Positions 2,520 through 63,443 of a stretch of 64,000 nucleotides of DNA are shown piece by piece. The first letter of the stretch is position 1. Each line of letters begins with the position of its first letter. Source of the DNA: Alphaproteobacteria bacterium UBA6187 (GTDB taxonomy: Bacteria; Pseudomonadota; Alphaproteobacteria; Rickettsiales; UBA6187); the NCBI GenBank assembly GCA_002422795.1, contig DITJ01000104.1, positions 15,324-79,323 of the forward strand, written 5' to 3'. The position numbers and the translations under genes were made by a program. The notes beneath the pieces were generated by a model. That model was not told where the DNA came from and did not search any database. It worked only from the letters and a program-made list of their open reading frames with translations.

Positions 2520-3314
2520 ATGCATGAAGATAAAGTTACCATACATTCTAAAGAAGATTTTGAAGGAATGCGCAAAGCCGGAAGGCTTGCAGCGGAAGTG
2601 CTTGATTATATTGCAGACTTCGTGCAGCCGGGCGTTAGCACTGATGAGCTGAATGTTTTATGCCATAATATGATTATAGGGCGCGGTGCAATCCCTGCCC
2701 CGCTTGGCTATAGGGGATTTCCTAAATCCATCTGCACTTCTGTAAACCATGTGGTTTGCCACGGCATACCTGATGAGCGTAAATTAAAAGATGGCGATAT
2801 AGTAAATATAGATGTTACCGTGATAGTAGATGGCTGGCACGGCGATACCAGCCGTATGTACTGGGCGGGTGAGCCTCCGGTAAAAGCAAAGCGCCTTAGC
2901 CAGGTAACTTATGATGCCATGATGCTGGGTATTGAACAAGTGCGCCCAGGTGCAACCCTTGGCGATATCGGCCACGCGATCCAGGAATATGCAGAAAAGC
3001 ATAATTATTCAATAGTGCGTGATTATTGCGGTCATGGCTTGGGGAAAATATTTCACACGGCTCCCAGTGTAATGCATTTCGGTAAAAAAGGCGAAGGCAT
3101 GGTGCTTAAAGAAGGCATGTTCTTTACCATTGAACCTATGGTGAATGTGGGCGGTTGGCGCACAGTGCTGAATAAAAAGGATAATTGGACTGTATGGACG
3201 AAGGATAAATCTCTATCAGCGCAATATGAGCATAGCCTGGGTGTTACCAGTGATGGGTTTGAGATATTTACAGGCTCGCCAAAGGGACTTAACTTTCCGC
3301 CTTATTCTAAATAG
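2520..3314 (+). CDS. map: Methionine aminopeptidase, type I
   Basis: 264 aa with canonical MetAP-I blocks (VCHGIP, DIVNIDVT, GHGLG, FTIEPM, EHS). Confidence 0.95.
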   Translation: MHEDKVTIHSKEDFEGMRKAGRLAAEVLDYIADFVQPGVSTDELNVLCHNMIIGRGAIPAPLGYRGFPKSICTSVNHVVCHGIPDERKLKDGDIVNIDVTVIVDGWHGDTSRMYWAGEPPVKAKRLSQVTYDAMMLGIEQVRPGATLGDIGHAIQEYAEKHNYSIVRDYCGHGLGKIFHTAPSVMHFGKKGEGMVLKEGMFFTIEPMVNVGGWRTVLNKKDNWTVWTKDKSLSAQYEHSLGVTSDGFEIFTGSPKGLNFPPYSK

Positions 3315-3375
3315 TTTTTAGTTCTTAGTTGTTAGTTTAAGCTAAGAACTACAAACTAAGAACCAACAACTAAAA
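3315..3375. repeat. Heptad-word hairpin between map and radC
   Basis: The 5' arm is AGTTTTT AGTTCTT AGTTGTT AGTTTAA. The 3' arm is TAAGAAC TACAAAC TAAGAAC CAACAAC. Both have period 7 and are complementary. Confidence 0.7.
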
Positions 3376-5875: not shown

Positions 5876-6058
5876 TATAGCGTTTCCGCTTTTCATTTCT
5901 ACGTCGTCATTCTTCGGACTCACAAAATTAGCGAACCTTCGATGTGATGAAATATAAGTAAACTTCATTTCATCACATCTTGGTTTCACCTAGGTTTACT
6001 AGGCTAAAATTTTGTTCACCTCGAATTCCTAGTAGAAATGAAAAGCGGAAACGCTATA
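5876..6058. repeat. 183-bp palindromic element with perfect 27-bp terminal inverted repeats
   Basis: tatagcgtttccgcttttcatttctac (5876-5902) is the exact reverse complement of 6032-6058. There is an inner hairpin gatgtgatgaaat...atttcatcacatc. A diverged half copy lies at 51192-51264. Confidence 0.85.
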
Positions 6059-16060: not shown

Positions 16061-16086
16061 ATCCGCCGCCATGAGGGTAAACCTTA

Positions 16087-16233
16087 AAATGACCTCTGCA
16101 TAATGAGGATTTTTTTGTGTGAGTTCTAGGAACGCCCGCCCGCAGAACCTTAAGTAAATAGACGTACATGAGGATTTGAGGACGGACGTAACGAAGAAAT
16201 CACCAAAAAATACCGTTATGCAGAGGTCTTTTT
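16087..16233. mobile_element. ~147-bp MITE-like palindromic element
   Basis: Perfect 13-bp inverted termini gacctctgcataa (16091-16103) and ttatgcagaggtc (16216-16228), flanked by A/T runs. A second, truncated copy lies at 1-52. It has no coding capacity. Confidence 0.7.
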
Positions 16234-16245
16234 AAAGTAGTAGAG

Positions 16246-17145
16246 TTACTGAGCTTTAGCAAATAACCGGAAGAAATTTTCAGTAGTAACTTTTTTCACT
16301 TCCTCATAAGGAATATTTTTTAGTTCCGCGAGAAATTTTGCAGTATAGCTAGTGTAAGCAGGTTCATTAGGTTTACCGCGATGTGGCATTGGCGCAAGAT
16401 ATGGCGCATCAGTTTCCACCAGCAGGCTTGAAAGCGGTAGGTTCTTAACAATTTCCTGCAATTCAACGGCTTTTTTAAAGGTTATTATTCCTGAAATAGA
16501 AACATACATTCCAAGCTCAATCGCCGCCTCTGCCAGCTCTTTGCCAGTGCTGAAACAATGGATAAGCCCCGGGAATTTTCCTTTTCTCATTTCATTCTGA
16601 AGGATTTTTATAGTGTCATCATCAGCGCTGCGCGTATGCACAATAACCGGCAGCCCGGTTTCGCGGGAGGCTTTAATATGCTCAATGAAGCTACTGGTTT
16701 GTAGCTCACGCGGGGAATGTTCATAATAATAATCAAGCCCGGTTTCACCAAGGCCGATTACTTTCGGGTCTTTTGCGGCTGCAATTAACTCTTCCGAGGT
16801 AACTGGTGGTTCTTCCGCAACATTATTGGGATGCACACCCACAGAACACCAGATATTATCATAACGCTTTGCAATTGCTAAAATATCAGGAAACTCACGC
16901 ATACGTGTGCAGATAGTTTGCATATAGCCAACATCTAAAGATGCCGCATTTGCAACCACATCATCCAGGCGGCTGGAGAGTTCAGGGAAATTCAGATGGC
17001 AATGTGAGTCAACCAATACCAACCCCTTATCTTTGTAACACGTTGTCGCGCTTTGGCCTTTCGGTGCGCACGTAGATTCGGCTACGCTTACGCCCTCCTT
17101 GCCTTGCGCTCCTAGTGTTACTTCGCTAATGGGCTGGTATGGCAT
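16246..17145 (-). CDS. tatD: TatD-family metal-dependent deoxyribonuclease/hydrolase
   Basis: VDSHCHL plus downstream His/Glu/Asp blocks. The ORF carries an unusual ~45-aa N-terminal extension that coincides with a repeat element. An internal TTG start just before VLVDSHCHL is possible. Confidence 0.85.
   Translation of the reverse strand: MPYQPISEVTLGAQGKEGVSVAESTCAPKGQSATTCYKDKGLVLVDSHCHLNFPELSSRLDDVVANAASLDVGYMQTICTRMREFPDILAIAKRYDNIWCSVGVHPNNVAEEPPVTSEELIAAAKDPKVIGLGETGLDYYYEHSPRELQTSSFIEHIKASRETGLPVIVHTRSADDDTIKILQNEMRKGKFPGLIHCFSTGKELAEAAIELGMYVSISGIITFKKAVELQEIVKNLPLSSLLVETDAPYLAPMPHRGKPNEPAYTSYTAKFLAELKNIPYEEVKKVTTENFFRLFAKAQ
17028..17125. repeat. Palindromic-element copy lying in the 5' part of the tatD ORF
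   Basis: The reverse complement reads taggagcgcaaggcaaggagggcgtaagcgtagccgaatctacgtgcgcaccgaaaggccaaagcgcgacaac. It matches the core of the intergenic element at 32154-32277. Confidence 0.7.
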
Positions 17146-22059: not shown

Positions 22060-22120
22060 TAAAATCGGCAATTTCAAGCTTGAAATACTATATAATGCTT
22101 ATGGGCAGGCTCAAGCATTA

Positions 22121-36839: not shown

Positions 36840-37826
36840 ATGAAAAAAGCTGTAATATTATTTAACCTTGGTGGCCCTGATAGTCTTGATGCGGTTGAAC
36901 CTTTTTTATTCAACCTGTTCAATGATAAAAATATCATAACCATACCAAATCCCATGCGGTTTTTTCTGGCGAAACTTATCTCCGGTAAAAGAGCGCCTAT
37001 CGCTAAGGAAATTTATAAAAATATTGGCAATAAATCCCCGATATTAGAAGAAACTGAAAAGCAGGCAGTGGCTTTGGAAAAAGCTTTAAATTCCATCACT
37101 AATCACCAATCACCAATCACCTACAAAACTTTTATATCAATGCGTTACTGGCATCCTTTTTCATACGAAACTATTGAAAAGGTAAAAGAATTTAACCCTG
37201 ATGAAATTATCCTTCTGCCGCTTTATCCGCAATTTTCAACCACAACAACAAAATCATCTTATGATGACTGGCATAAAATATCTAAGAAAAATGGATTAAA
37301 AATTCCTGTTAAAACTATATGCGGATATCATTTGGATGAAGATTTTATTACTGCGCACTCTAATATTATTAAAAAATCCTACGAAGAAATAGGTAATACA
37401 AAAACCAGGATTTTATTTTCTGCACACGGATTACCTGAAAAAATAATTAAAAAAGGCGATCCTTACCAAAAGCAAATAGAAGAAACAGCTGCTGCAATCG
37501 TAGCTAAATTATCTATAGAAAACCTTGATTTTGTAGTTTGTTACCAATCACGTGTTGGTAGGTTAAAATGGATAGACCCCAGCACAGAAGATGAAATAAA
37601 ACGCGCAGGTGTTGATTCTTTGGAAATTATTGTAGTTCCTATTGCTTTTGTATCTGAGCATTCAGAAACTTTAGTGGAACTTGATATTGAATATAAGCAT
37701 CTTGCGAAAGAATCTGGGGTAAAAAATTATTACCGAGTTCCTACACTTGGTGTGGATGATAATTTTATAAAAACACTGGTAAATGTTTGTATAAATACCG
37801 AAGAATTTAAATGTAATTGCTATTAA
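36840..37826 (+). CDS. hemH: Ferrochelatase
   Basis: 328 aa with [15 protein letters not shown] and SAHGLPE blocks. Confidence 0.93.
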
Positions 37827-45444: not shown

Positions 45445-45687
45445 TGGTGGAGAGATTACCCTAGTAAGCTAGTAGTGCAGAAATTAAATTTGTAGTAATT
45501 TTACTTTAAAATTCTCTATTATTTCATTTGTGCAGGTGCGCTAGTGTTCGCTATAGTGTTGTTTTGATAATTAATTGGTATTATAGTATTTCCCATTTTC
45601 AATAATGATGCGTCAATCATCATCTCATGTAGCTCACCTACACATCGACTCGATTTCCTATCATTATTGAAAAGCGAAAACACTATA

Positions 45688-46674
45688 TTATATAACTTTA
45701 ATAGAATCCTTAAACTTCATATATTGCGTCCTTTCATAAATCTTTACCCAATCTTTAACCATCTTCTGTGATGAATAATTTTTAAGGACATATTCCTGGC
45801 TGAGTTGCAAATAATGGCTTCGCTCTTCAAAAGAGCGTAACTTATTTATCAATTCTACAATGCCCGAATTTGATGTAAAAAGATAATTTTCAAGACCGCA
45901 ATTCGTTAAAAGCCTTTGATAAGCCGGAGTTTTACTTGCTATTACAGGAACGCCCCGGTTTATAGCAAGAACCGCCTTATTTTCTGACTTACAATAAGTG
46001 TTAACATCAAAATCAGTGGGAACATGACTTAATACACATGCATCAAAGGTTTGCAGCAATGCGGGAAATGTTTCTGGGGTATATTGGTGAATTATACAAT
46101 TTTGTACTTTGCCGTAATGCTTGTTTTTGGTAACAATATGATATTCAATTTCTTTTTCTAAATGTAAGGTAGTTAGTGTGTGTTCGTGTGCTATCATGGA
46201 CTTTTGATAAGAATCCGGATACCCAAACCACACAATTTTTAAAGGCTTTTTATTGTCTGTAGGCTTTTTAAATGAATTGGTAAAGCCAAAATCAATCGGG
46301 TCTAAGAGAACTTCAACCGAACGGTTTGTAAATAGTTGTACAACATCCTTCATTTCCGGGGTTGGCAGTAAAAGAACATCCACAAGCTCTGACCATCGTT
46401 TTAATGACGGAATCAATTTATTGCTGATATCTGGAATAAAAAGCATAATAACGGCATGTTGTGCGCGCTTCTGCAATAAGGATACAAGTCTTGGGTTCGT
46501 ATCAAGATCAATCTTTAAGCCGTTAATCAATATTCCAGATACTTTTTCATTGCTTTCTTGTAAACGACAAAAATTAAAGCCTGCAGGTTTTTGAGCAATT
46601 AATGGATTAAATTTCACGCGATGAACTACGCCATCAGGGTAGGGACTAAGGATTTCAATATTGTTTTTAAGCAT
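45688..46674 (-). CDS. Hypothetical protein, possibly a GT-B-type glycosyltransferase
   Basis: 328 aa. The C-terminal half (KIVWFGYPDS..., NRGVPVIASKTPAYQRLL) resembles a GT-B sugar-donor domain. The call is weak. Confidence 0.35.
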   Translation of the reverse strand: MLKNNIEILSPYPDGVVHRVKFNPLIAQKPAGFNFCRLQESNEKVSGILINGLKIDLDTNPRLVSLLQKRAQHAVIMLFIPDISNKLIPSLKRWSELVDVLLLPTPEMKDVVQLFTNRSVEVLLDPIDFGFTNSFKKPTDNKKPLKIVWFGYPDSYQKSMIAHEHTLTTLHLEKEIEYHIVTKNKHYGKVQNCIIHQYTPETFPALLQTFDACVLSHVPTDFDVNTYCKSENKAVLAINRGVPVIASKTPAYQRLLTNCGLENYLFTSNSGIVELINKLRSFEERSHYLQLSQEYVLKNYSSQKMVKDWVKIYERTQYMKFKDSIKVI

Positions 46675-48798: not shown

Positions 48799-49416
48799 AT
48801 GACACAATTAAATATTCTGAAATCCATAACTGGAAATTCTAATTTCTTACAGGATAAAATCACTAGTTTGCAGGATTTCTCGGAGCTGCTTCTAAAGTGG
48901 AACCAGAAAATTAACCTGGTGAGTAAGAAAATTACTGCGGAAGAGTTATGGCAGAGGCATATATTAGATTCGGCTCAATTATTAAAATACATTCCCGGCC
49001 AAAGTAAAATAGTTGATTTTGGCAGTGGGGCCGGGTTCCCGGCCATTATATTGGCGCTTTTAAGTGATGATGAAATCACATTAGTAGAAAGTGACCAGCG
49101 TAAATGTGCTTTTATGCAGGAAGCTAAGGCAAAATTTAATTTGAATATAAATGTTATTTGCGCGCGCATTGAAGATGTAAAACCATTTGATGTGGATGTT
49201 ATAACCTCACGGGCATTGGCCCCATTACAGAATTTACTGGAATATTCTTACCCTTTCTACAAGAATGATAATTATATGCTTTTCTTAAAGGGGCAGAATG
49301 TGTTAGAAGAAATAAAGGAAGCATCAATATATTGGGATTTTACCCATGAGCTATTCCCTGATGCCGTAAATAAAGAAGGTGGCGTGTTAAAAATTTCTAA
49401 TTTAAAGAGGCTATAA
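48799..49416 (+). CDS. rsmG: 16S rRNA m7G527 methyltransferase RsmG (GidB)
   Basis: 205 aa with DFGSGAGFPAI as the SAM motif, in the canonical position after mnmG. Confidence 0.92.
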   Translation: MTQLNILKSITGNSNFLQDKITSLQDFSELLLKWNQKINLVSKKITAEELWQRHILDSAQLLKYIPGQSKIVDFGSGAGFPAIILALLSDDEITLVESDQRKCAFMQEAKAKFNLNINVICARIEDVKPFDVDVITSRALAPLQNLLEYSYPFYKNDNYMLFLKGQNVLEEIKEASIYWDFTHELFPDAVNKEGGVLKISNLKRL

Positions 49417-50222
49417 TGACATCTAACCTTGCAAAAGATAACACCAAAATAATGGCATTGGTTAACCAGAAAGGTGGGGTGGGGAAGACGACGACGGCTG
49501 TAAACCTCGCAACCGCCCTTTCTGCAACCAGAAAAAAAGTTTTACTTATAGATTTAGATCCACAAGGCAATGCTAGCACCGGTCTTGGAATTGAAGGCAA
49601 GCTACGTAAGAATAACAGCATTTATGAAGTTTTGGTAGGTTTAAGAAACATTGAAGACGCGGTGATAAAAACAAAAATTCCTGGCTTAGATATAGTACCA
49701 GCAAGCGTGGTGCTTTCTGCCGCTGAAATTGAGCTGGTAGGAGTTGAATCTAGGGAGTTTGTACTCAAATCTTTATTAAACGGCCTATCTAAAAAATATG
49801 ATTACATACTTATAGATTGCCCACCATCATTGGGGCTGCTTACTTTAAATGCCTTGGTTGCCTCTAATTCAGTGATGATCCCCCTGCAATGTGAATTTTT
49901 TGCGCTAGAGGGGCTTAGCCATTTATTAAAAACTGTGGAATTAGTAAAAAAGAAGCTCAATCCGGCACTTTCTATCCATGGAATTGTACTTACCATGTAT
50001 GATAAACGCAATAAATTGACAGAACAGGTAGAGCTTGATGTAAGAAAACATCTGGGAGACGATGTTTACAAAACAGTTATTCCAAGAAATATAAAAATTT
50101 CAGAAGCGCCGTCACACGGACAGCCAGCAATTATTTATGATTATAAATCGGCTGGTTCAATGGCGTATTTGCACTTAGCGAAAGAAATGCTGCAAAGAGA
50201 AAAGAGGGCGGTTGCCGTTTAA
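49416..50222 (+). CDS. parA: Chromosome partitioning ATPase ParA
   Basis: Deviant Walker A NQKGGVGKTTT. The ATG overlaps the rsmG stop. Confidence 0.94.
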   Translation: MTSNLAKDNTKIMALVNQKGGVGKTTTAVNLATALSATRKKVLLIDLDPQGNASTGLGIEGKLRKNNSIYEVLVGLRNIEDAVIKTKIPGLDIVPASVVLSAAEIELVGVESREFVLKSLLNGLSKKYDYILIDCPPSLGLLTLNALVASNSVMIPLQCEFFALEGLSHLLKTVELVKKKLNPALSIHGIVLTMYDKRNKLTEQVELDVRKHLGDDVYKTVIPRNIKISEAPSHGQPAIIYDYKSAGSMAYLHLAKEMLQREKRAVAV

Positions 50223-50232
50223 TATTGCAAAA

Positions 50233-50248
50233 TGTTTCACGTGAAACA
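50233..50248. promoter_or_regulatory. parS site between parA and parB
   Basis: Exact TGTTTCACGTGAAACA. Confidence 0.85.
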
Positions 50249-50277
50249 TATATTTATTTAAAATAAGGAAAAGCATA

Positions 50278-51153
50278 ATGAAAATATCAAAACAAGCACT
50301 AGGTAAAGGACTTTCCGCATTAATCTCGACTGATGATGATGACTTTCAAACAGCAGAAAGATTGCAGCCACTGGAGATGCCTTTAAATTTATTGGTGGCT
50401 GGGAAATCGCAGCCAAGGGGGTATTTTGAAGAGAGTAGCTTGCAGGAGCTTGCTGAATCTATTAAGAAAAATGGAGTTATTCAGCCCATTTTGGTGAGGA
50501 AATTAAATGATATAAGCTATGAAATAATTGCTGGAGAGCGTCGTTTCCGCGCTTCAAAACTGGCCGGATTACAGACCATGCCTGTAATTATAAAAGAATT
50601 AGATAACCGGCAAGCATTGGAATTAGCCCTTATAGAAAATATCCAAAGAGAAAACCTTACTGCAATTGAAGAAGCTGAGGGGTATAAACGCCTACAGGAA
50701 GAATTTAACTACACGCAAGAGCAATTAGGTAATGTTTTAGGAAAAAGCCGTAGCCATGTAGCAAATATGCTGCGTTTATTAACCCTGCCGCAATCAATAA
50801 AAGATATGTTAAATTCCGGGTTGATTTCTATGGGGCATGCCAGGGTATTGGTGGGGGTGGAGGGTCCACAAGCATTAGCTGAAAGAATAGTTAATGAAGG
50901 GCTAAGTGTGCGTGATGCTGAAAAGTTTGCCAGCGGTAGTATGCATAGTCAAGTTACAGCAAAAGAGCGTCAACCGAGTCAGAAAAGAAATAACTCTACC
51001 GCATCTAGCGCGCAAAAGGATGAGGATTTATTGCTTATAGAAAGATCTTTATCAGATTTACTTGGTATGAAGATTTCTATTGAGGAAGATCGTGTTGTGC
51101 TTTACTACAACAATCTTACTGAACTAGATAAGATATTGCAAAGGATAGGTTAA
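50278..51153 (+). CDS. parB: Chromosome partitioning protein ParB
   Basis: 291 aa with the GERRFRA box and an HTH region (QEQLGNVLGKSRSHVANMLRLL). Confidence 0.94.
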   Translation: MKISKQALGKGLSALISTDDDDFQTAERLQPLEMPLNLLVAGKSQPRGYFEESSLQELAESIKKNGVIQPILVRKLNDISYEIIAGERRFRASKLAGLQTMPVIIKELDNRQALELALIENIQRENLTAIEEAEGYKRLQEEFNYTQEQLGNVLGKSRSHVANMLRLLTLPQSIKDMLNSGLISMGHARVLVGVEGPQALAERIVNEGLSVRDAEKFASGSMHSQVTAKERQPSQKRNNSTASSAQKDEDLLLIERSLSDLLGMKISIEEDRVVLYYNNLTELDKILQRIG

Positions 51154-51191
51154 TTGGCATTTCTATAATTCTGGCAATAATGTATACTTAT

Positions 51192-51264
51192 ATTTCATTA
51201 TGCAGAAGCTTCGCCAATTATGCAAGTCCGAAGAATAACAACATAGAAATGAAAATGAGTATAA
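51192..51264. repeat. Diverged half copy of the 5876-6058 palindromic element
   Basis: atttcattatgcagaagcttcgccaattatgcaagtccgaagaataacaacatagaaatgaaaatgagtata aligns with the reverse complement of 5876-5950. Confidence 0.6.
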
Positions 51265-51352
51265 AGCAGGAGAGGGTGCTTTTTTAGAGATTGCCTTACT
51301 GTTGATCTTGTTTTTCTTTCCAAGCAGCTAAATTTCCGCTATTGCTACTATC

Positions 51353-54300
51353 ATGACAACAGCACAGCTTCAAGCATCAGACCCGGCATATTCGGTATGG
51401 GTGGCGGCATCTGCCGGAACGGGAAAAACCACCGTGCTTACCTCACGTGTGCTGCGCCTGCTGCTTAATAATACCAACCCGGGGAAAATTCTGTGCCTAA
51501 CCTACACAAAGGCAGGTGCTGCGGAAATGGAATGCCGCATTAAAGCCAGATTATGCCGCTGGGTAACATTGCCGGAAAATGAGCTTATCGTAGAATTAAC
51601 GAAGCTTACCACTGAAATTCCAAGCGCAGATACAATAAAGCTCGCCCGCAAATTATTCCTTGAAACGCTGGATACGCCTGACGGGATTAAAATCCAGACC
51701 ATCCACTCATTCTGCCAGGGATTAATGCGCCGTTTTCCGCTTGAGGCGGGGATTGTGCCGCATTTTAAGGTTATGGACGATAAAACCTCAAGAGAATTAT
51801 TAAAAGAAGCACGCTTAAAGCTCCTTTCTGATTCAGATATTTATACGGCAGAAATAAAAGCCTCCATTACAAATATTTTCAGGCGAATTCGCGAAGGCAC
51901 GTTTTCAGAAGTAATTGAAGGTATAATAAGTGACCGTGGTAAACTGGGCAAGGCAATCGCCCAATCTGGTGGGGTAGAGGGGCTAAAAAAAGCAATATTC
52001 GGATTGCTTGAAGTGGATGAGGGGCAAGATGAATATGCCGTCCTTAAAAACGCCATGCAGGAGGCAAATTTTAACAGGAAAGAATTGCATGCAACAGCTA
52101 TTGGGCTTTTAAATGAAAAAGGCGTGACTTTTATAGAGCGCGGAAAAATTATATGTAACTGGCTGGAGCAGGACGAAAAAGGCAGGCTGGAAAATTTCCA
52201 CTCATATAAACTTGCATATCTTACTAAAGAAGAGGCGCCAAGGGCGGCATTGCTTCCTGCAAAAACCAATATACCGCCTGAACCGATAGACTTTGAAAAA
52301 GAGCGTATATGCAGGCTGATTAGAGCCATAAAAAGAACCAGGCTGGCGCTTCTTTCCAGTAGCATGGTAGATATTGCCTGCTCGCTCTTGGCATTATACG
52401 ATATAGAAAAATCCGGCAAGGCATATCTTGATTATAACGACCTTATCACAAAAGCCGAAAACCTGCTTTCTGGCACAGATATTGCACCATGGGTGCTTTA
52501 TAAACTAGATGGCGGCATAGACCACTTGCTGCTCGATGAAGCGCAGGATACCAGCCTGGCACAGTGGCATATCATAGATTCCTTATGCTCGGAATTTTTT
52601 ACAGGCAGTGGCGCGCGCGATGTGGAGCGGACAATTTTCGTGGTAGGAGATGAAAAGCAATCAATATTCAGCTTCCAGGGGGCGGCTCCGCATATATTCA
52701 ATAAAATGCGCTATAAATTCCAGGAGCGCGCCGAGCAGGCAGGCAAGCAATGGCTGAATGTAAGGCTGGATGAATCTTTCCGCTCTGCGCCTGTGGTGTT
52801 GCGGGCGGTGGATGCGGTATCGCAGGGATTGGGGATTAGGACTTGGGGATTAGGGAATCATAATAATCTGGAATCAACTTCCTTTAATATTAACGCGGCT
52901 TCCTCGCCACCTCCCAATCCCCAATCCCCAATCCCCAACTTACATATTCCCCACCATAAAACCCTGCATGGCAAAGTGGAAATATGGCCTTTAATCGAAC
53001 GGCAACAAGAAGAAGAGCAAAGTGCCGGCTGGGTGATGCCGCTGGAATATAAGGATAAACAGAACCCCCCGAAAATTCTTGCTGAAAAAATTGCCAGCAC
53101 CATAAAGAAGTGGCTTGATAATGGCCGCATAATTGAAGCAACGGGGCAGAAAGTGCGTGCAGGCGATATAATTATATTGCTGCGCAAAAGAACCAACATG
53201 GCGGATAATATTATCTCCAGTTTGAAAAGCCGCAATGTTGCCGTGGCAGGGCATGATAGGCTTATAATAACAGAGCATATTGCGGTTATGGATTTAATGG
53301 CGTTGGGTAACTTCCTGTTGCTGCCCGAAGATAGTCTGTCGCTCGCCTGCGTTTTAAAATCACCCTTAATCGGCTTTTCGGAAGAAGATTTATTTCAAGT
53401 TGCGTATGGAAGGGATAAAAAAAGCCTATGGCAGGCTTTGAAAGAGCGCGCAAAAGATGCGCAAAACCCGCCGCATTTCCAGCATGCAGTGGAGTATCTT
53501 TCCAATCTGCTGAATAAGGTTGATTATTTTACTCCATTTAAGCTTTATTGTTATATATTAGAGGCTATCGGCGGCAGGAAAAAGCTGGTGCAGCGCCTGG
53601 GCGAGGAAATAAATGATCCCGTGGATGAATTCCTTTCTTTGAGCCTTGAATTTGAAAAATCCCATGCCCCTTCCTTGCAGGGTTTTTTAAACTGGCTGGA
53701 ATCCGGCAAATCAGAAATAAAACGCGATATGGAACAAAGTGGCACAGATGCTGTAAGGGTGATGACAGTGCATGGCTCTAAGGGGCTAGAAGCGCCTATA
53801 GTCATAATGCCTGATACCACTACCGTACCCGAAACGAAAATGAAAATTTTCTGGCATGAGGATGATAACGCAAACATACTTCTCTGGCCGGGCGGTTCGC
53901 ATAACGAGGAAGAATTCTGCGATGCTATAAAAGAAAACAAAAAAATGGAAGAAAAGCAGGAATATTACCGCCTGCTTTATGTAGCCATGACCCGCGCTAA
54001 ATTTGAGCTATATGTAGCAGGTTCGGTAGGTAAAAAAAGCAGGCCGGATTGGTGCTGGTATGATGTTATATATTCCGCACTTGATAATATTAGACTTCCA
54101 CGGAAACAGGGTTTTGGGGAGGCAGATGCGCGAAGCGAGTATCACAGAACCGTAAGCGTACAGGGCGTACGTGCGGATTCGAGAAACGCAGCGACAAGCG
54201 AGCTGCCCACCAAAACCCTGTTTCCGTGGAAGTCTATTGCGGAAAAAGATGCAGATGGCATCTTACGCTTAAGCGGCGGCAATCCTGCGATTATAAAAGA

Positions 54301-54949
54301 ATCGCAAATAAAGCAGGCCGCTGTTTTTGCCCCGCTGCCTGCATATTTATTGAATAAGCCTGAAAGTGAGCCAAACCCAACGCGCCCCCTTACCCCATCA
54401 AAAATTGAAGGGGAGCAAGGCGCGGAGGTTTATTCGCCGTCCAGCCGGGCAAAGCTTATGGAAGGCAAGATTATCCATAGCCTGCTGGAATTCCTGCCTG
54501 ATATATTTGAGGCAAACCGCATGGATAAAGGGCTTGAATTTTTAAGAAAGAAGTTTCCCACCGCTGAAAATGTGGAGATAGAAAGCATACTGGCGAACTT
54601 GCTTGCAATAATGTGCAGGGACGATCTAAAGCATGTATTTAGCGAAACATCCCGCGCCGAAGTGCCGGTTATAGGAATCGCTGGCGGCATGGTTATATCG
54701 GGCCGTATCGACAGGCTAGGCATCACAGATGATAAGGTAATAATAGTTGATTACAAAACCGGGCGCATACCGCCTAAATCAATTTCAGCTATAAATAGGG
54801 CTTATATTAAGCAGATGTCTGTTTATAAGGATATCATTAAGGAAATTTACCCTGCCAAGCAAGTGGAATGTTACCTTATATGGACAGAAGGTGCGGTAGT
54901 TTTCAAATTACCTGAAGAAACCCTTGGTAAACAGGCGAGTGTAGTGTAA
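51353..54949 (+). CDS. addA: Double-strand-break repair helicase-nuclease AddA (UvrD-like helicase plus C-terminal RecB-type nuclease)
   Basis: 1198 aa with Walker A AASAGTGKTTVL, LLLDEAQDTS, and the C-terminal nuclease motif GRIDRLG...IIVDYKTG. It is followed by trxA, as in many alphaproteobacteria. It contains two palindromic inserts. Confidence 0.9.
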   Translation: MTTAQLQASDPAYSVWVAASAGTGKTTVLTSRVLRLLLNNTNPGKILCLTYTKAGAAEMECRIKARLCRWVTLPENELIVELTKLTTEIPSADTIKLARKLFLETLDTPDGIKIQTIHSFCQGLMRRFPLEAGIVPHFKVMDDKTSRELLKEARLKLLSDSDIYTAEIKASITNIFRRIREGTFSEVIEGIISDRGKLGKAIAQSGGVEGLKKAIFGLLEVDEGQDEYAVLKNAMQEANFNRKELHATAIGLLNEKGVTFIERGKIICNWLEQDEKGRLENFHSYKLAYLTKEEAPRAALLPAKTNIPPEPIDFEKERICRLIRAIKRTRLALLSSSMVDIACSLLALYDIEKSGKAYLDYNDLITKAENLLSGTDIAPWVLYKLDGGIDHLLLDEAQDTSLAQWHIIDSLCSEFFTGSGARDVERTIFVVGDEKQSIFSFQGAAPHIFNKMRYKFQERAEQAGKQWLNVRLDESFRSAPVVLRAVDAVSQGLGIRTWGLGNHNNLESTSFNINAASSPPPNPQSPIPNLHIPHHKTLHGKVEIWPLIERQQEEEQSAGWVMPLEYKDKQNPPKILAEKIASTIKKWLDNGRIIEATGQKVRAGDIIILLRKRTNMADNIISSLKSRNVAVAGHDRLIITEHIAVMDLMALGNFLLLPEDSLSLACVLKSPLIGFSEEDLFQVAYGRDKKSLWQALKERAKDAQNPPHFQHAVEYLSNLLNKVDYFTPFKLYCYILEAIGGRKKLVQRLGEEINDPVDEFLSLSLEFEKSHAPSLQGFLNWLESGKSEIKRDMEQSGTDAVRVMTVHGSKGLEAPIVIMPDTTTVPETKMKIFWHEDDNANILLWPGGSHNEEEFCDAIKENKKMEEKQEYYRLLYVAMTRAKFELYVAGSVGKKSRPDWCWYDVIYSALDNIRLPRKQGFGEADARSEYHRTVSVQGVRADSRNAATSELPTKTLFPWKSIAEKDADGILRLSGGNPAIIKESQIKQAAVFAPLPAYLLNKPESEPNPTRPLTPSKIEGEQGAEVYSPSSRAKLMEGKIIHSLLEFLPDIFEANRMDKGLEFLRKKFPTAENVEIESILANLLAIMCRDDLKHVFSETSRAEVPVIGIAGGMVISGRIDRLGITDDKVIIVDYKTGRIPPKSISAINRAYIKQMSVYKDIIKEIYPAKQVECYLIWTEGAVVFKLPEETLGKQASVV
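52825..52938. repeat. Heptad-word hairpin embedded in-frame in addA
   Basis: The 5' arm is GGATTGG GGATTAG GACTTGG GGATTAG GGAAT. The 3' arm is CCTCCCA ATCCCCA ATCCCCA ATCCCCA AC. It is translated as ...GLGIRTWGLGNHNNLESTSFNINAASSPPPNPQSPIPN... The boundaries are approximate. Confidence 0.7.
54095..54232. repeat. 138-bp palindromic element embedded in-frame in addA
   Basis: Perfect 23-bp inverted termini cttccacggaaacagggttttgg (54095-54117) and ccaaaaccctgtttccgtggaag (54210-54232). It spans exactly 46 codons, starts on a codon boundary, and encodes LPRKQGFGEADARSEYHRTVSVQGVRADSRNAATSELPTKTLFPWK. Confidence 0.85.
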
Positions 54950-55067
54950 GATAATATCTACCTTGAAATTTGCTCCAACTGACATTATATAATAGCAATA
55001 AGCCACAGCAAGCAGGCTGTAATTAAGATATAGCAATATCAAAAAATAATTAAACATAGGAATTTTT

Positions 55068-55391
55068 ATGTCGCACGAAACTACAGATATTAATTTTGAA
55101 AAAGATGTTTTAAAAGCAAATGGCCCTGTACTTGTTGATTTCTGGGCTGAATGGTGTGGGCCTTGTAAGCAGTTATCTCCGATTATTGACGAAATTTCCA
55201 ACGAACTTAAAGGCAAGCTGGAAGTTTATAAAGTAAATATAGACCAAAACCCGGATGCACCTGCTAAATATAATGTGCGCGGTATACCTACCTTACTTAT
55301 ATTTAAAGATGGCGCGCCAGTTGCAACTAAAGTAGGCTCACTTCCAAAAAGCCGCCTTGTTGAGTGGATTACAACTGTTATTGCTGCGTAA
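55068..55391 (+). CDS. trxA: Thioredoxin
   Basis: 107 aa with the WAEWCGPCK active site. Confidence 0.96.
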
Positions 55392-56428: not shown

Positions 56429-57286
56429 CTACAAACAGCTTTTCAACCCCTCCCTATAAGTCGGATATTTAAGCTGCACACCTAATTCCTGTTTGATGCG
56501 TTCATTGCTAACGCGCCTATTGCTTGCCCAGAAACTTTTTGCCATTTCTGAGAGTTCCGCCTGCTCAAATTCCACAAGTGGCGGAGGGGTTATTCCAAGT
56601 AGCTTTGCCGCATATTCAACCACCTGGGCCTGCGGTGCAGGCTCGTCATCCGCGCAGTTATATACACGCCACGGGTTTGGTTTATTTATAGAGCCTCGCA
56701 AGATTCCCGCAATATCTTCAACATGTATACGCGAAAACACCTGCCCTTCCTTATGCACTCTGTGCGCTTTTCCCGCTTTTAATTCATCAATTGCACTACG
56801 ACCTTTGCCGTAAATTCCAGAAAGGCGGAATATATGCACAGGCAAGCCGCAGTCGAGCCACGCCTCTTCCGCATCGGCTCGCCTCTGGTTGCGCCCATGA
56901 GGCGGATTTACAGGCGTTTCTTCACTGACCCATGCACCATTATGATCGCCATATACACCAGTGGTAGAAAGATAACCAAACCATTCCAGGTTTGGGAGTG
57001 ATTTTAGGTCAGCCAGGTGGTGGTGGAGTACAGGGTCTAGGGGCTGGGGGCTGGAGGCTGGGGGAGCCGAATGCAAAATATGCGTTACTCCTCCCAAATC
57101 CCAAACTTCCTGAAGGGGTAAATCATTATCAAATATATAAGCGGTGATGCCCATGGCGCGCAGGCGTTCGCATTTATCAGATGTGCGGCAAGTGCCAGAA
57201 ACGCGCCAGCCCTCGAGCAGCAGTTGCTTTGCTAAAATTAAAGCAGAATATCCGAGGCCGAAGCAGAAGAGGTGGGGCATGAGCAA
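56429..57286 (-). CDS. NAD(P)-binding SDR/epimerase-family protein
   Basis: 285 aa with the Rossmann-like N-terminus CFGLGYSALILAKQLLLEGWRVSGTCR and YLSTTGVYGD. It carries a G-rich heptad tract at 57033-57106. Confidence 0.75.
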   Translation of the reverse strand: MLMPHLFCFGLGYSALILAKQLLLEGWRVSGTCRTSDKCERLRAMGITAYIFDNDLPLQEVWDLGGVTHILHSAPPASSPQPLDPVLHHHLADLKSLPNLEWFGYLSTTGVYGDHNGAWVSEETPVNPPHGRNQRRADAEEAWLDCGLPVHIFRLSGIYGKGRSAIDELKAGKAHRVHKEGQVFSRIHVEDIAGILRGSINKPNPWRVYNCADDEPAPQAQVVEYAAKLLGITPPPLVEFEQAELSEMAKSFWASNRRVSNERIKQELGVQLKYPTYREGLKSCL

Positions 57287-61399: not shown

Positions 61400-61479
61400 A
61401 GAGAATGTAAGAATATAAGAGTGTGAGAGTGTAAGTAAAATATTATTAACACTTACATTCTTACACTCTTACATTCTAC
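61400..61479. repeat. Octad-word hairpin between gatA and gatB
   Basis: The 5' arm is AATGTAAG AATATAAG AGTGTGAG AGTGTAAG and has no C. The 3' arm is CTTACATT CTTACACT CTTACATT and has no G. Confidence 0.75.
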
Positions 61480-62950: not shown

Positions 62951-63041
62951 AGAGTCCAGAGTTCGGAGTCCAGAGTTCAGTATTTAAGAGTTTAGGAAGG
63001 GGTCTGCTTCACGGGACTCTGAATTCTGAACTCTGAACTCT
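62951..63041. repeat. Heptad-word hairpin between gatC and gatA
   Basis: The 5' arm is GAGTCCA GAGTTCG GAGTCCA GAGTTCA. The 3' arm is GACTCTG AATTCTG AACTCTG AACTCT. Confidence 0.75.
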
Positions 63042-63333: not shown

Positions 63334-63353
63334 TTGTATTCCTTGAAAGATAA

Positions 63354-63443
63354 GGTGATGGGTGATAGGTAATAGGTGACTGGGAGTTAAGATAAAGCAA
63401 AGCTTTATCTTCCCCATCACCTAACATCTATCACCCAGTACCC
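63354..63443. repeat. Heptad-word hairpin between divergent gatC and ruvX
   Basis: The 5' arm is GGTGATG GGTGATA GGTAATA GGTGACT GGGAG. The central stem is aagataaag / ctttatctt. The 3' arm is CCCCATC ACCTAAC ATCTATC ACCCAGT. Confidence 0.75.

Follow-up and report, generated by a model that had tools for sequence, protein, structure and literature searches.

Two unrelated palindromic repeats read through in frame in the addA gene of an uncultured alphaproteobacterium

In-frame fusions of MITEs (miniature transposable elements with inverted repeats) with bacterial genes have been reviewed for a number of systems, including the Rickettsia palindromic elements (RPEs), intragenic ERIC and large BOX elements, QMITE1 of Coxiella and the MITEs of Anabaena (PMC10969869), with the RPEs comprising the series RPE-1 to RPE-10 (Ogata et al., 2000, cited after PMC10969869). 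Hairpins can also be built from short tandem words. GGGGA(C/T)T heptamers of the STRR1 type are abundant in Nostoc, where 32% of them are intragenic (Rehm et al., 2015, PMC4692102), GGGAATC forms 70-75 convergent inverted pairs with stem-loop capability in Xanthomonas (PMC4692102), and TAACTGA heptamer repeats are present in Beggiatoaceae (PMC4679880). In vitro, formation of G-quadruplexes has been shown for G-runs of the GGGGATT type (PMC4692102). Here, we describe a 64,000-nucleotide stretch of contig DITJ01000104.1 (positions 15,324 to 79,323, assembly GCA_002422795.1; hereafter the window), in which addA, the gene for the double-strand-break repair helicase-nuclease AddA of the alphaproteobacterial type (51353-54949, plus strand), runs through two palindromic repeats. 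With a probability of about 0.72, we hold that a functional-looking addA carries two unrelated hairpin repeats in tolerant sites, that the downstream one (element 2) is MITE-like while the upstream one (element 1) is a word hairpin, that is an AT-rich loop flanked by two inverted arrays of a word of 7-8 nt, and that both survived in frame via purifying selection.

The addA gene is an intact open reading frame (ORF) of 1198 codons, and both palindromes announced by the first-pass annotation of this DNA indeed lie within it. The encoded protein scores 1103.8 bits against TIGR02784 (cutoff 860.75) across model positions 2-1138 of 1138, i.e. over the full length, and contains the Pfam domains UvrD-helicase, UvrD_C and PDDEXK_1 (PD-(D/E)XK). 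All superfamily 1 helicase motifs are intact (GTGKT, residues 22-26; DEAQDT, 395-400; VGDEKQSI, 431-438; SFRS, 475-478; HGSKGL, 807-812; VAMTRA, 877-882), and so is the PD-(D/E)XK nuclease motif with D1120, D1133 and K1135. Alignments were made with 15 orthologues at first and then with 118, giving 119 sequences including the query. In the larger one, the helicase and nuclease motif residues sit in invariant or near-invariant columns and every invariant residue is retained, so that there is no sign of pseudogenisation. A pseudogene, which had been raised as an objection at the outset, is rejected at the sequence level on the grounds of the above-cutoff, full-length TIGR02784 score and the conserved residues. 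The best match of an AlphaFold model of the protein among solved structures is the AddA of Bacillus AddAB (4cej_A, E = 1e-40), RecB is also matched, and a sequence alignment to 3u44_A spans residues 388-893.

Only two long segments of this AddA, residues 491-514 and 911-959, are private to it among the 119 sequences, and they coincide with the two repeats; neither is conserved AddA sequence. The AlphaFold2 run, for which the 119-sequence alignment was used, yielded a mean predicted local distance difference test score (pLDDT) of 87.6 and a predicted template-modelling score of 0.77. Long segments with a pLDDT below 50 occur only at residues 501-527 and 918-958, both of them coil, and just four residues elsewhere fall below this value. 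Element 1 is located after helix 480-492, just past motif IV (SFRS, 475-478), and before strand 540-544, while element 2 follows helix 902-911, past motif VI (VAMTRAK, 877-883), and is itself followed by the linker to the nuclease, which is poorly conserved. In the model both inserts appear as extruded, disordered loops, in agreement with the surface loops that had been expected, and both repeats probably occupy positions of AddA that are tolerant of extra disordered sequence. The original placement of both repeats between the helicase and nuclease blocks holds for element 2 and has to be given up for element 1, which resides inside the helicase, 13 residues past motif IV.

Element 2 is a 144-bp palindromic sequence of the form AGAC...GTCT (54092-54235, plus strand), which is translated in frame as RLPRKQGFGEADARSEYHRTVSVQGVRADSRNAATSELPTKTLFPWKS and flanked on the left (54089-54091) and on the right (54236-54238) by ATT on the plus strand, a 3-bp direct repeat that most simply represents a target-site duplication. 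The terminal inverted repeats are perfect over 26 nt (54092-54117 and 54210-54235), or over 27 nt when the flanking T/A is counted (54091-54117 and 54210-54236), they are separated by 92 nt, and no equal match arose in 100 shuffles. The DNA folds into a single long hairpin (-50.2 kcal/mol, z = -11.1), and its GC content amounts to 56% as opposed to 46% for addA. The borders are set by the orthologues. Where these read CWYDVIYNALAS followed immediately by IATK, the protein from the window reads CWYDVIYSALDN, 49 additional residues and then IAEKD, and this clean 49-column segment is absent in 118 of 118 orthologues. The clean gap defines an insertion of 147 nt or 49 codons, for which a 144-nt element plus ATT on each side is the sole arithmetic fit, and removal of 54092-54238 in silico restores LDN-IAEKD, an orthologue-like empty site. 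The earlier dimensions of 138 bp and 46 codons with inverted termini of 23 bp are thereby superseded. Duplication of TA, as known for IS630/mariner-type elements, was considered and excluded, since the empty site needs 147 bases and ATT is the only direct repeat common to this copy and the second one described below.

As 144 + 3 is divisible by three, any insertion of element 2 keeps the downstream reading frame, and two of the six combinations of phase and orientation are free of stop codons. It follows that one in three random insertions into a tolerant site would be read through, and no special selection for translatability, as put forward in the first-pass annotation, is needed; survivorship in a permissive loop is sufficient. 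Insertion of element 2 into addA and its toleration there are evident from the alignment and the intact gene. As to how it came about, a non-autonomous MITE-like element, moved by the transposase of a parent element, would have inserted at ATT and duplicated this triplet, and its stop-free phase and length of 144 + 3 nt would have turned it into a disordered loop of 49 residues that follows motif VI where the helicase-nuclease linker begins. In-frame survival would then reflect purifying selection that removes addA-breaking insertions, and a benefit of the peptide would not be required.

Terminal inverted repeats, an apparent target duplication, small size and lack of a transposase ORF place element 2, as judged from its sequence, within the structural definition of a MITE. 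It shares these traits, as well as the long hairpin and the occasional read-through, with the bacterial MITEs that occur in frame; it differs from them in the 3-bp ATT and in a length of 144 + 3 nt that always keeps the frame, and in lacking any Rfam, plasmid or phage match. The family is undescribed, and we read it as a previously uncatalogued MITE-like family. If so, a parent insertion sequence (IS) with the ends AGACTTCCAC is to be expected.

A second copy of element 2 was found when a profile of its two stop-free translations was searched against 1.84 billion representative proteins. The match, P0122 (E = 8.7e-10), is encoded on contig L013 (NCBI GCA_038920735.1) and represents a DUF3035 lipoprotein to which 58 amino acids, MPKLIRLPPKLDFGEANARSECRRTVSV... 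(L013 8843-9016), have been spuriously added at the N-terminus, because the gene caller ran the ORF upstream through a copy of element 2. This copy (L013 8858-9001) likewise measures 144 nt, has the same arm length with 92 nt in between and is bordered by ATT on both sides. It is intergenic, situated between lspA, the TAG stop codon of which spans the element edge, and the DUF3035 lipoprotein gene, with its end 15 nt before the ATG of the latter. The two copies are about 85% identical, and the terminal repeats of the L013 copy match each other at 96%. Over the 58 stem pairs of the hairpin in the two copies, 97% of the cells pair, compared with 28-45% in shifted-register controls; six of the stem pairs that differ between the copies are altered on both sides and thus compensated, and three are changed from GC to GU. 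Such co-variation of ends and hairpin is expected for one transposase binding both ends, for a selected structure, or for both.

Further searches for relatives of element 2 returned none. Rfam contained no family at the gathering threshold and only generic microRNA-precursor hairpins below it, blastn against plasmids and phages gave no match, and when all terminal-repeat and hairpin elements were compared by blastn-short with the window and with 12 related loci, no element 2 copy besides that on L013 was detected. A word-indexed protein search with the six-frame translation of element 2 was also without a match, a result that is uninformative given that an identical 52-aa stretch of P0001 was missed as well.

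The second copy bears on the notion that the palindromes are fold-back chimeras or misjoins and that the true addA lacks them. Palindromes are a known cause of assembly errors, and the window stems from a 142-kb contig of a metagenome assembly (ENA ERZ27315062 k141_1091743). Yet the identical 1198-aa protein is present in NCBI, Logan and ENA on differently sized contigs, element 2 combines 92 nt of unique interior with a homologue of the same architecture in an independent genome, orthologues from other samples have hairpins at the site of element 1, and both inserts leave the frame open. We regard an assembly artefact as hardly credible.

Element 1 is a GGGGATT/AATCCCC hairpin made of heptad words such as GGGGATT and GGGAATC with a period of 7. 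Its 5' arm (52824-52858, plus strand) consists of the G-rich heptads GGGATTG GGGATTA GGACTTG GGGATTA GGGAATC and is translated as GLGIRTWGLGN, the AT-rich loop (52859-52903, plus strand) contains TTAATATTA, which it has in common with the loop of the orthologue on L002, and the 3' arm (52904-52938, plus strand) is composed of C-rich heptads (CCCAATC, 3.7 copies) and translated as SPPPNPQSPIPN; the read-through peptide had been quoted correctly before. Tandem Repeats Finder reports AGGGATT in 4.7 copies of period 7 at 52824-52856 and CCCAATC in 3.7 copies at 52913-52938 (100% matches, score 52). The arms are 84-87% complementary across 23-26 nt, and the single-stranded DNA folds with -24.8 to -28.7 kcal/mol (z = -4.1 to -5.6), a value that none of 200 shuffles reached. 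With the heptamers of Nostoc, Xanthomonas and Beggiatoaceae, element 1 shares tandem 7-nt words, including the exact GGGGATT, and the arrangement in convergent pairs capable of forming stem-loops; furthermore, both are mostly intergenic with a minority in genes, and vary in copy number. In contrast to these systems, the host is an uncultured alphaproteobacterium, many 7- and 8-mer words coexist without a single consensus, nearly all of them are arranged as hairpins, and one hairpin is inside addA with relatives carrying other words at the site. Element 1 is best classed as a heptamer simple-sequence repeat in a convergent stem-loop pair, in a new host lineage.

The site of element 1 was compared with the corresponding site in addA from the seven relatives that are closest (54-63% protein identity), the loop being taken between SFRS..VD.V and H(I/V)AHHK. 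This loop is a variable region after motif IV, and the hairpins found in it differ in their words and range from strong to decayed. The window, with the word GGGGATT, reaches z = -5.6, L002 has GGGTTTA/GGGTGTA (z = -6.8), L005 TCGTTGG/TCGTTTA (z = -3.4), L004 GGGCGAA... (z = -2.7) and L007 GCTGAGG... (z = -1.3); the word is decayed in L006 (z = -0.2), and L008 and L009 possess short loops and no hairpin. Because relatives carry hairpins of different words in the same loop, element 1 is not a simple single-copy insertion. The clean insertions that the first-pass annotation anticipated from an orthologue alignment are accordingly found for element 2; the element 1 segment is also extra, in a loop that varies among relatives. 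Read on the AddA tree, the simplest history has a hairpin gained once after the split of L009 and subsequently decayed or lost in L006 and L008. CCTT(T)AATATTA occurs in the loop of L002 as well as in that of the window, and the (GGG N4)n arrays of their arms stand in the same register to the codons on either side, which is suggestive, though not proof, of common descent with compensated change. As a side observation, a T-run in addA of L007 (L007 8186-8189) contains a 1-nt frameshift that splits the gene into two ORFs between YYRLL and YVAMTRAK, and this may be either an assembly error or a real pseudogene.

A word hairpin would accordingly have been set into the motif IV loop in the ancestor of the clade, or been re-inserted there repeatedly, and slippage within the arms, copying or conversion between the arms, or decay may have altered it afterwards. 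Such turnover or decay would explain why different words are found at the same site among relatives. On the other hand, element 1 may not have been inserted at all, the low-complexity loop having grown in place by heptad slippage and template switching and the hairpins of the relatives being independent products of the same kind. Every hairpin, in the window as in the relatives, has its own words and loop, conserved ends and target duplications are not seen, the basal L008 and L009 show short G-rich/C-rich or heptad-like traces at the site, and, although the hairpin comprises 38 codons, AddA exceeds typical orthologues here by no more than a net 24 amino acids. Growth in place is nevertheless unlikely in our view. 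In tsaD of L004 (7440-7565, minus strand), a clean 32-aa in-frame insert with the 8-mer words GGGATKAA / TCATCCCT is evident by comparison with the 83%-identical TsaD of L006. This looks like an insertion event, and word hairpins do arrive cleanly and in frame in this clade. In addition, the GGGATTA and AGARTGTA word families occur as hairpins on L013 at sites that are not orthologous to those in the window, suggesting dispersal. The arms of element 1 and the GGGATTA hairpin of L013 are about 80% identical in either orientation, as the shared word alone would give, and this identity is therefore not decisive for homology.

An explanation that goes further takes the word hairpins as a self-renewing, mobile or conversion-driven class, the arms of which stay complementary as the words change, with one member persisting in addA across speciation and perhaps serving a regulatory purpose. 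It would imply concerted evolution of a DNA or RNA hairpin within a protein loop and regulation of addA via the hairpin, a G-quadruplex or heptad slippage. Since the data do not separate concerted evolution of the arms from repeated insertion, we consider this quite unlikely.

We are more doubtful still that the hairpins are selected features of addA, be it that hairpin or G-quadruplex tunes translation or mRNA stability, or that the heptads act as a frameshift switch, in which gain or loss of one 7-nt unit breaks the frame, and make recombination repair phase-variable. A hairpin with complementary arms does occupy the AddA loop in four to five of eight related species despite different words, the compensated and GC-to-GU stem changes between the two copies of element 2 agree with a selected structure, the sense strand of element 1 has at least four G-runs of the GGGGATT type that forms G-quadruplexes in vitro (PMC4692102), and its 3' arm offers 3.7 perfect heptads. 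The hairpins at this site, however, range from strong to fully decayed and are missing from two members of the clade, which fits neutral turnover better; moreover, the word class is mostly intergenic and without a fixed sequence, element 2 is private to one genome among the 119 AddA sequences, and there are only about four heptads. A T-run follows neither addA hairpin, which also disposes of a reading as intrinsic terminators. Purifying selection on addA with tolerance of the two loops remains our preferred explanation.

A third in-frame palindrome, unrelated to the two described above, is present at a different site in AddA of L005, the closest relative of the window (L005 9439-9560). It has the ends GTCATTGCGAGGAGC...GCTCCTCGCAATGAC, an RNA folding energy of -73.7 kcal/mol and the translation CHCEEPTEGGATKQS...LPRHTPSGRLLAMT. 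A relationship to the CGTGGCAATCC hairpins of the window was dropped, no window relative having been found. In-frame palindromes thus recur in the clade, in AddA of L005 and tsaD of L004, and to this extent the first-pass annotation was right in suspecting a widespread phenomenon. Within the 64-kb window, on the other hand, hairpin and terminal-repeat elements are overwhelmingly intergenic, and the only two strong hairpins within coding sequences are both in addA.

The addA elements exhibit RPE-type behaviour, that is, a palindrome read through in frame in a housekeeping gene. Like RPEs, they are alphaproteobacterial palindromes of about 100-150 bp that lie in frame in unrelated housekeeping genes at fold-compatible sites, are translated and have intergenic copies as well. 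Membership in the RPE families, to which the first-pass annotation had likened them, is not supported, with the reservation that a direct comparison with RPE consensus DNA is not part of this assessment. The addA elements are without similarity to catalogued domains: the insert peptides had no hit at E ≤ 10 in NCBIfam and Pfam, libraries that presumably include RPE domain models, and the whole AddA gave no RPE match there either. No DNA similarity was detected elsewhere in the window or the related loci except on L013. Unlike RPEs, element 2 possesses sharp terminal inverted repeats of 26 nt and a 3-bp direct repeat, as a classical MITE does, and element 1 is a heptad-word hairpin. RPEs reach tens of copies per genome in Rickettsia, a number unmatched by the one element 2 copy in the 64-kb window. 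Finally, the host does not belong to Rickettsia. Among named sequences, those closest to MnmG from the window, at 67-69% identity, come from metagenome-assembled genomes of unclassified Alphaproteobacteria or "Rickettsiales", and the host is on this basis an uncultured alphaproteobacterium.

Word hairpins also resemble the REP/REPIN elements mobilised by RAYT, in that a hairpin of about 100 nt arises from two inverted short repeats and the spacer between them, in their dispersed and mostly intergenic distribution and in forming lineage-specific families. They differ from them in lacking a single conserved REP sequence and in having arms that are tandem word arrays. No RAYT gene was seen among the ORFs scanned in the window, a systematic search not being included.

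Several points weigh against the explanation that we prefer. Element 2 is known from two copies in two different genomes, of which 64 kb and 16 kb were read. Exact scans of GTDB representative genomes and JGI metagenomes with a 20-mer of the terminal repeat yielded three single-arm chance matches in unrelated coding regions; they also failed to return the window contig itself, and the conserved core between the two copies would have made a better pattern. A parent IS or transposase was not found among the large ORFs of the window, which do not include a transposase, and no search of an ISfinder-type library was made. The empty site is represented by diverged orthologues and not by a true empty allele, so that the 3-bp duplication is deduced from them. 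The compensated changes in the terminal repeats could be due to co-evolution with a transposase binding two ends instead of selection on the hairpin. For element 1, repeated insertion into the same permissive loop cannot be separated from a single origin with turnover of the arms. The activity of the interrupted AddA is deduced from conservation of its sequence. Alphaproteobacterial addB is usually found directly upstream of addA. It does not adjoin addA in the window (49416-55391) or in the relatives and was not located, the ten largest ORFs of the window not including AddB.

In the window, addA is preceded by gidA-gidB-parA-parB and followed by a thioredoxin gene. When the window and the relatives are considered together, parA-parB or gatB lie upstream and the thioredoxin gene downstream.

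Five further word hairpins are present in the window, all intergenic, each with its own word and with RNA folding energies of -20 to -54 kcal/mol: at 3312-3372 (TAGTTCT), 35357-35430 (GTTTATG), 61402-61477 (AGARTGTA), 62951-63041 (AGAGTTC) and 63353-63442 (AGGTGAT). The words of the third recur at L013 4805-5050, a non-orthologous site. The related contigs contain about one word hairpin per 8-16 kb, mostly intergenic. In a sliding RNA fold, the hairpin at 29272-29424, intergenic as well, is stronger than any other in the window (-82 kcal/mol in a 150-nt segment); it has arms such as CCTCCTCCCTTGAGGGAGAGGG, and an 18-nt piece of it matches L002/L003 14202-14219 exactly. Single-arm heptad arrays occur in frame in the ferrochelatase ORF (36840-37826), with four copies of ATCACCA at 37095-37123 and no partner arm found, and in an unnamed ORF of 285 amino acids (56429-57286, minus strand), with three copies at 57040-57061.

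A candidate further MITE-like family has terminal repeats of the type TATAG(C/T)(G/A)TTTC. One element of 183 bp (5876-6058) has perfect terminal repeats of 27 nt, a relative of 112 bp lies at 45579-45690, and a 31-nt fragment, 90% identical, is located just upstream of the addA start (51225-51255). A full member on L013 (4867-4974) sits within the loop of a word hairpin made of 8-mers, and a solo end at 22065-22092 is possibly related (89% over 28 nt to the L013 element). For two further inverted-repeat elements, each about 150 bp long, part of the sequence is present a second time in the window: the one at 16081-16238 is matched at 7-44 (95% over 38 nt), and the one at 32145-32286 at 17061-17114 (87% over 54 nt), inside the ORF 16246-17145.

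Taken together, several unrelated selfish hairpin families have entered one large repair gene and are tolerated there because they land in disordered loops, and this is a clear case outside Rickettsia. It is a genuine and well-documented new example of a known phenomenon, to which it adds one element family and, for heptad hairpins, a new host lineage. The new MITE-like family has a built-in frame-preserving length of 144 + 3 nt, and an uncultured alphaproteobacterial lineage is rich in heptad word hairpins such as those of cyanobacteria and Xanthomonas, and these can occur within essential genes. Such inserts inflate protein lengths, give rise to spurious N-terminal extensions as in P0122 and can mislead annotation. 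The sole feature that could go beyond the ordinary is that a hairpin, its words differing from species to species, persists at one site of a protein loop, and hairpins of different words at one orthologous site amount to a small natural experiment on how palindromes in coding DNA arise, turn over and decay.

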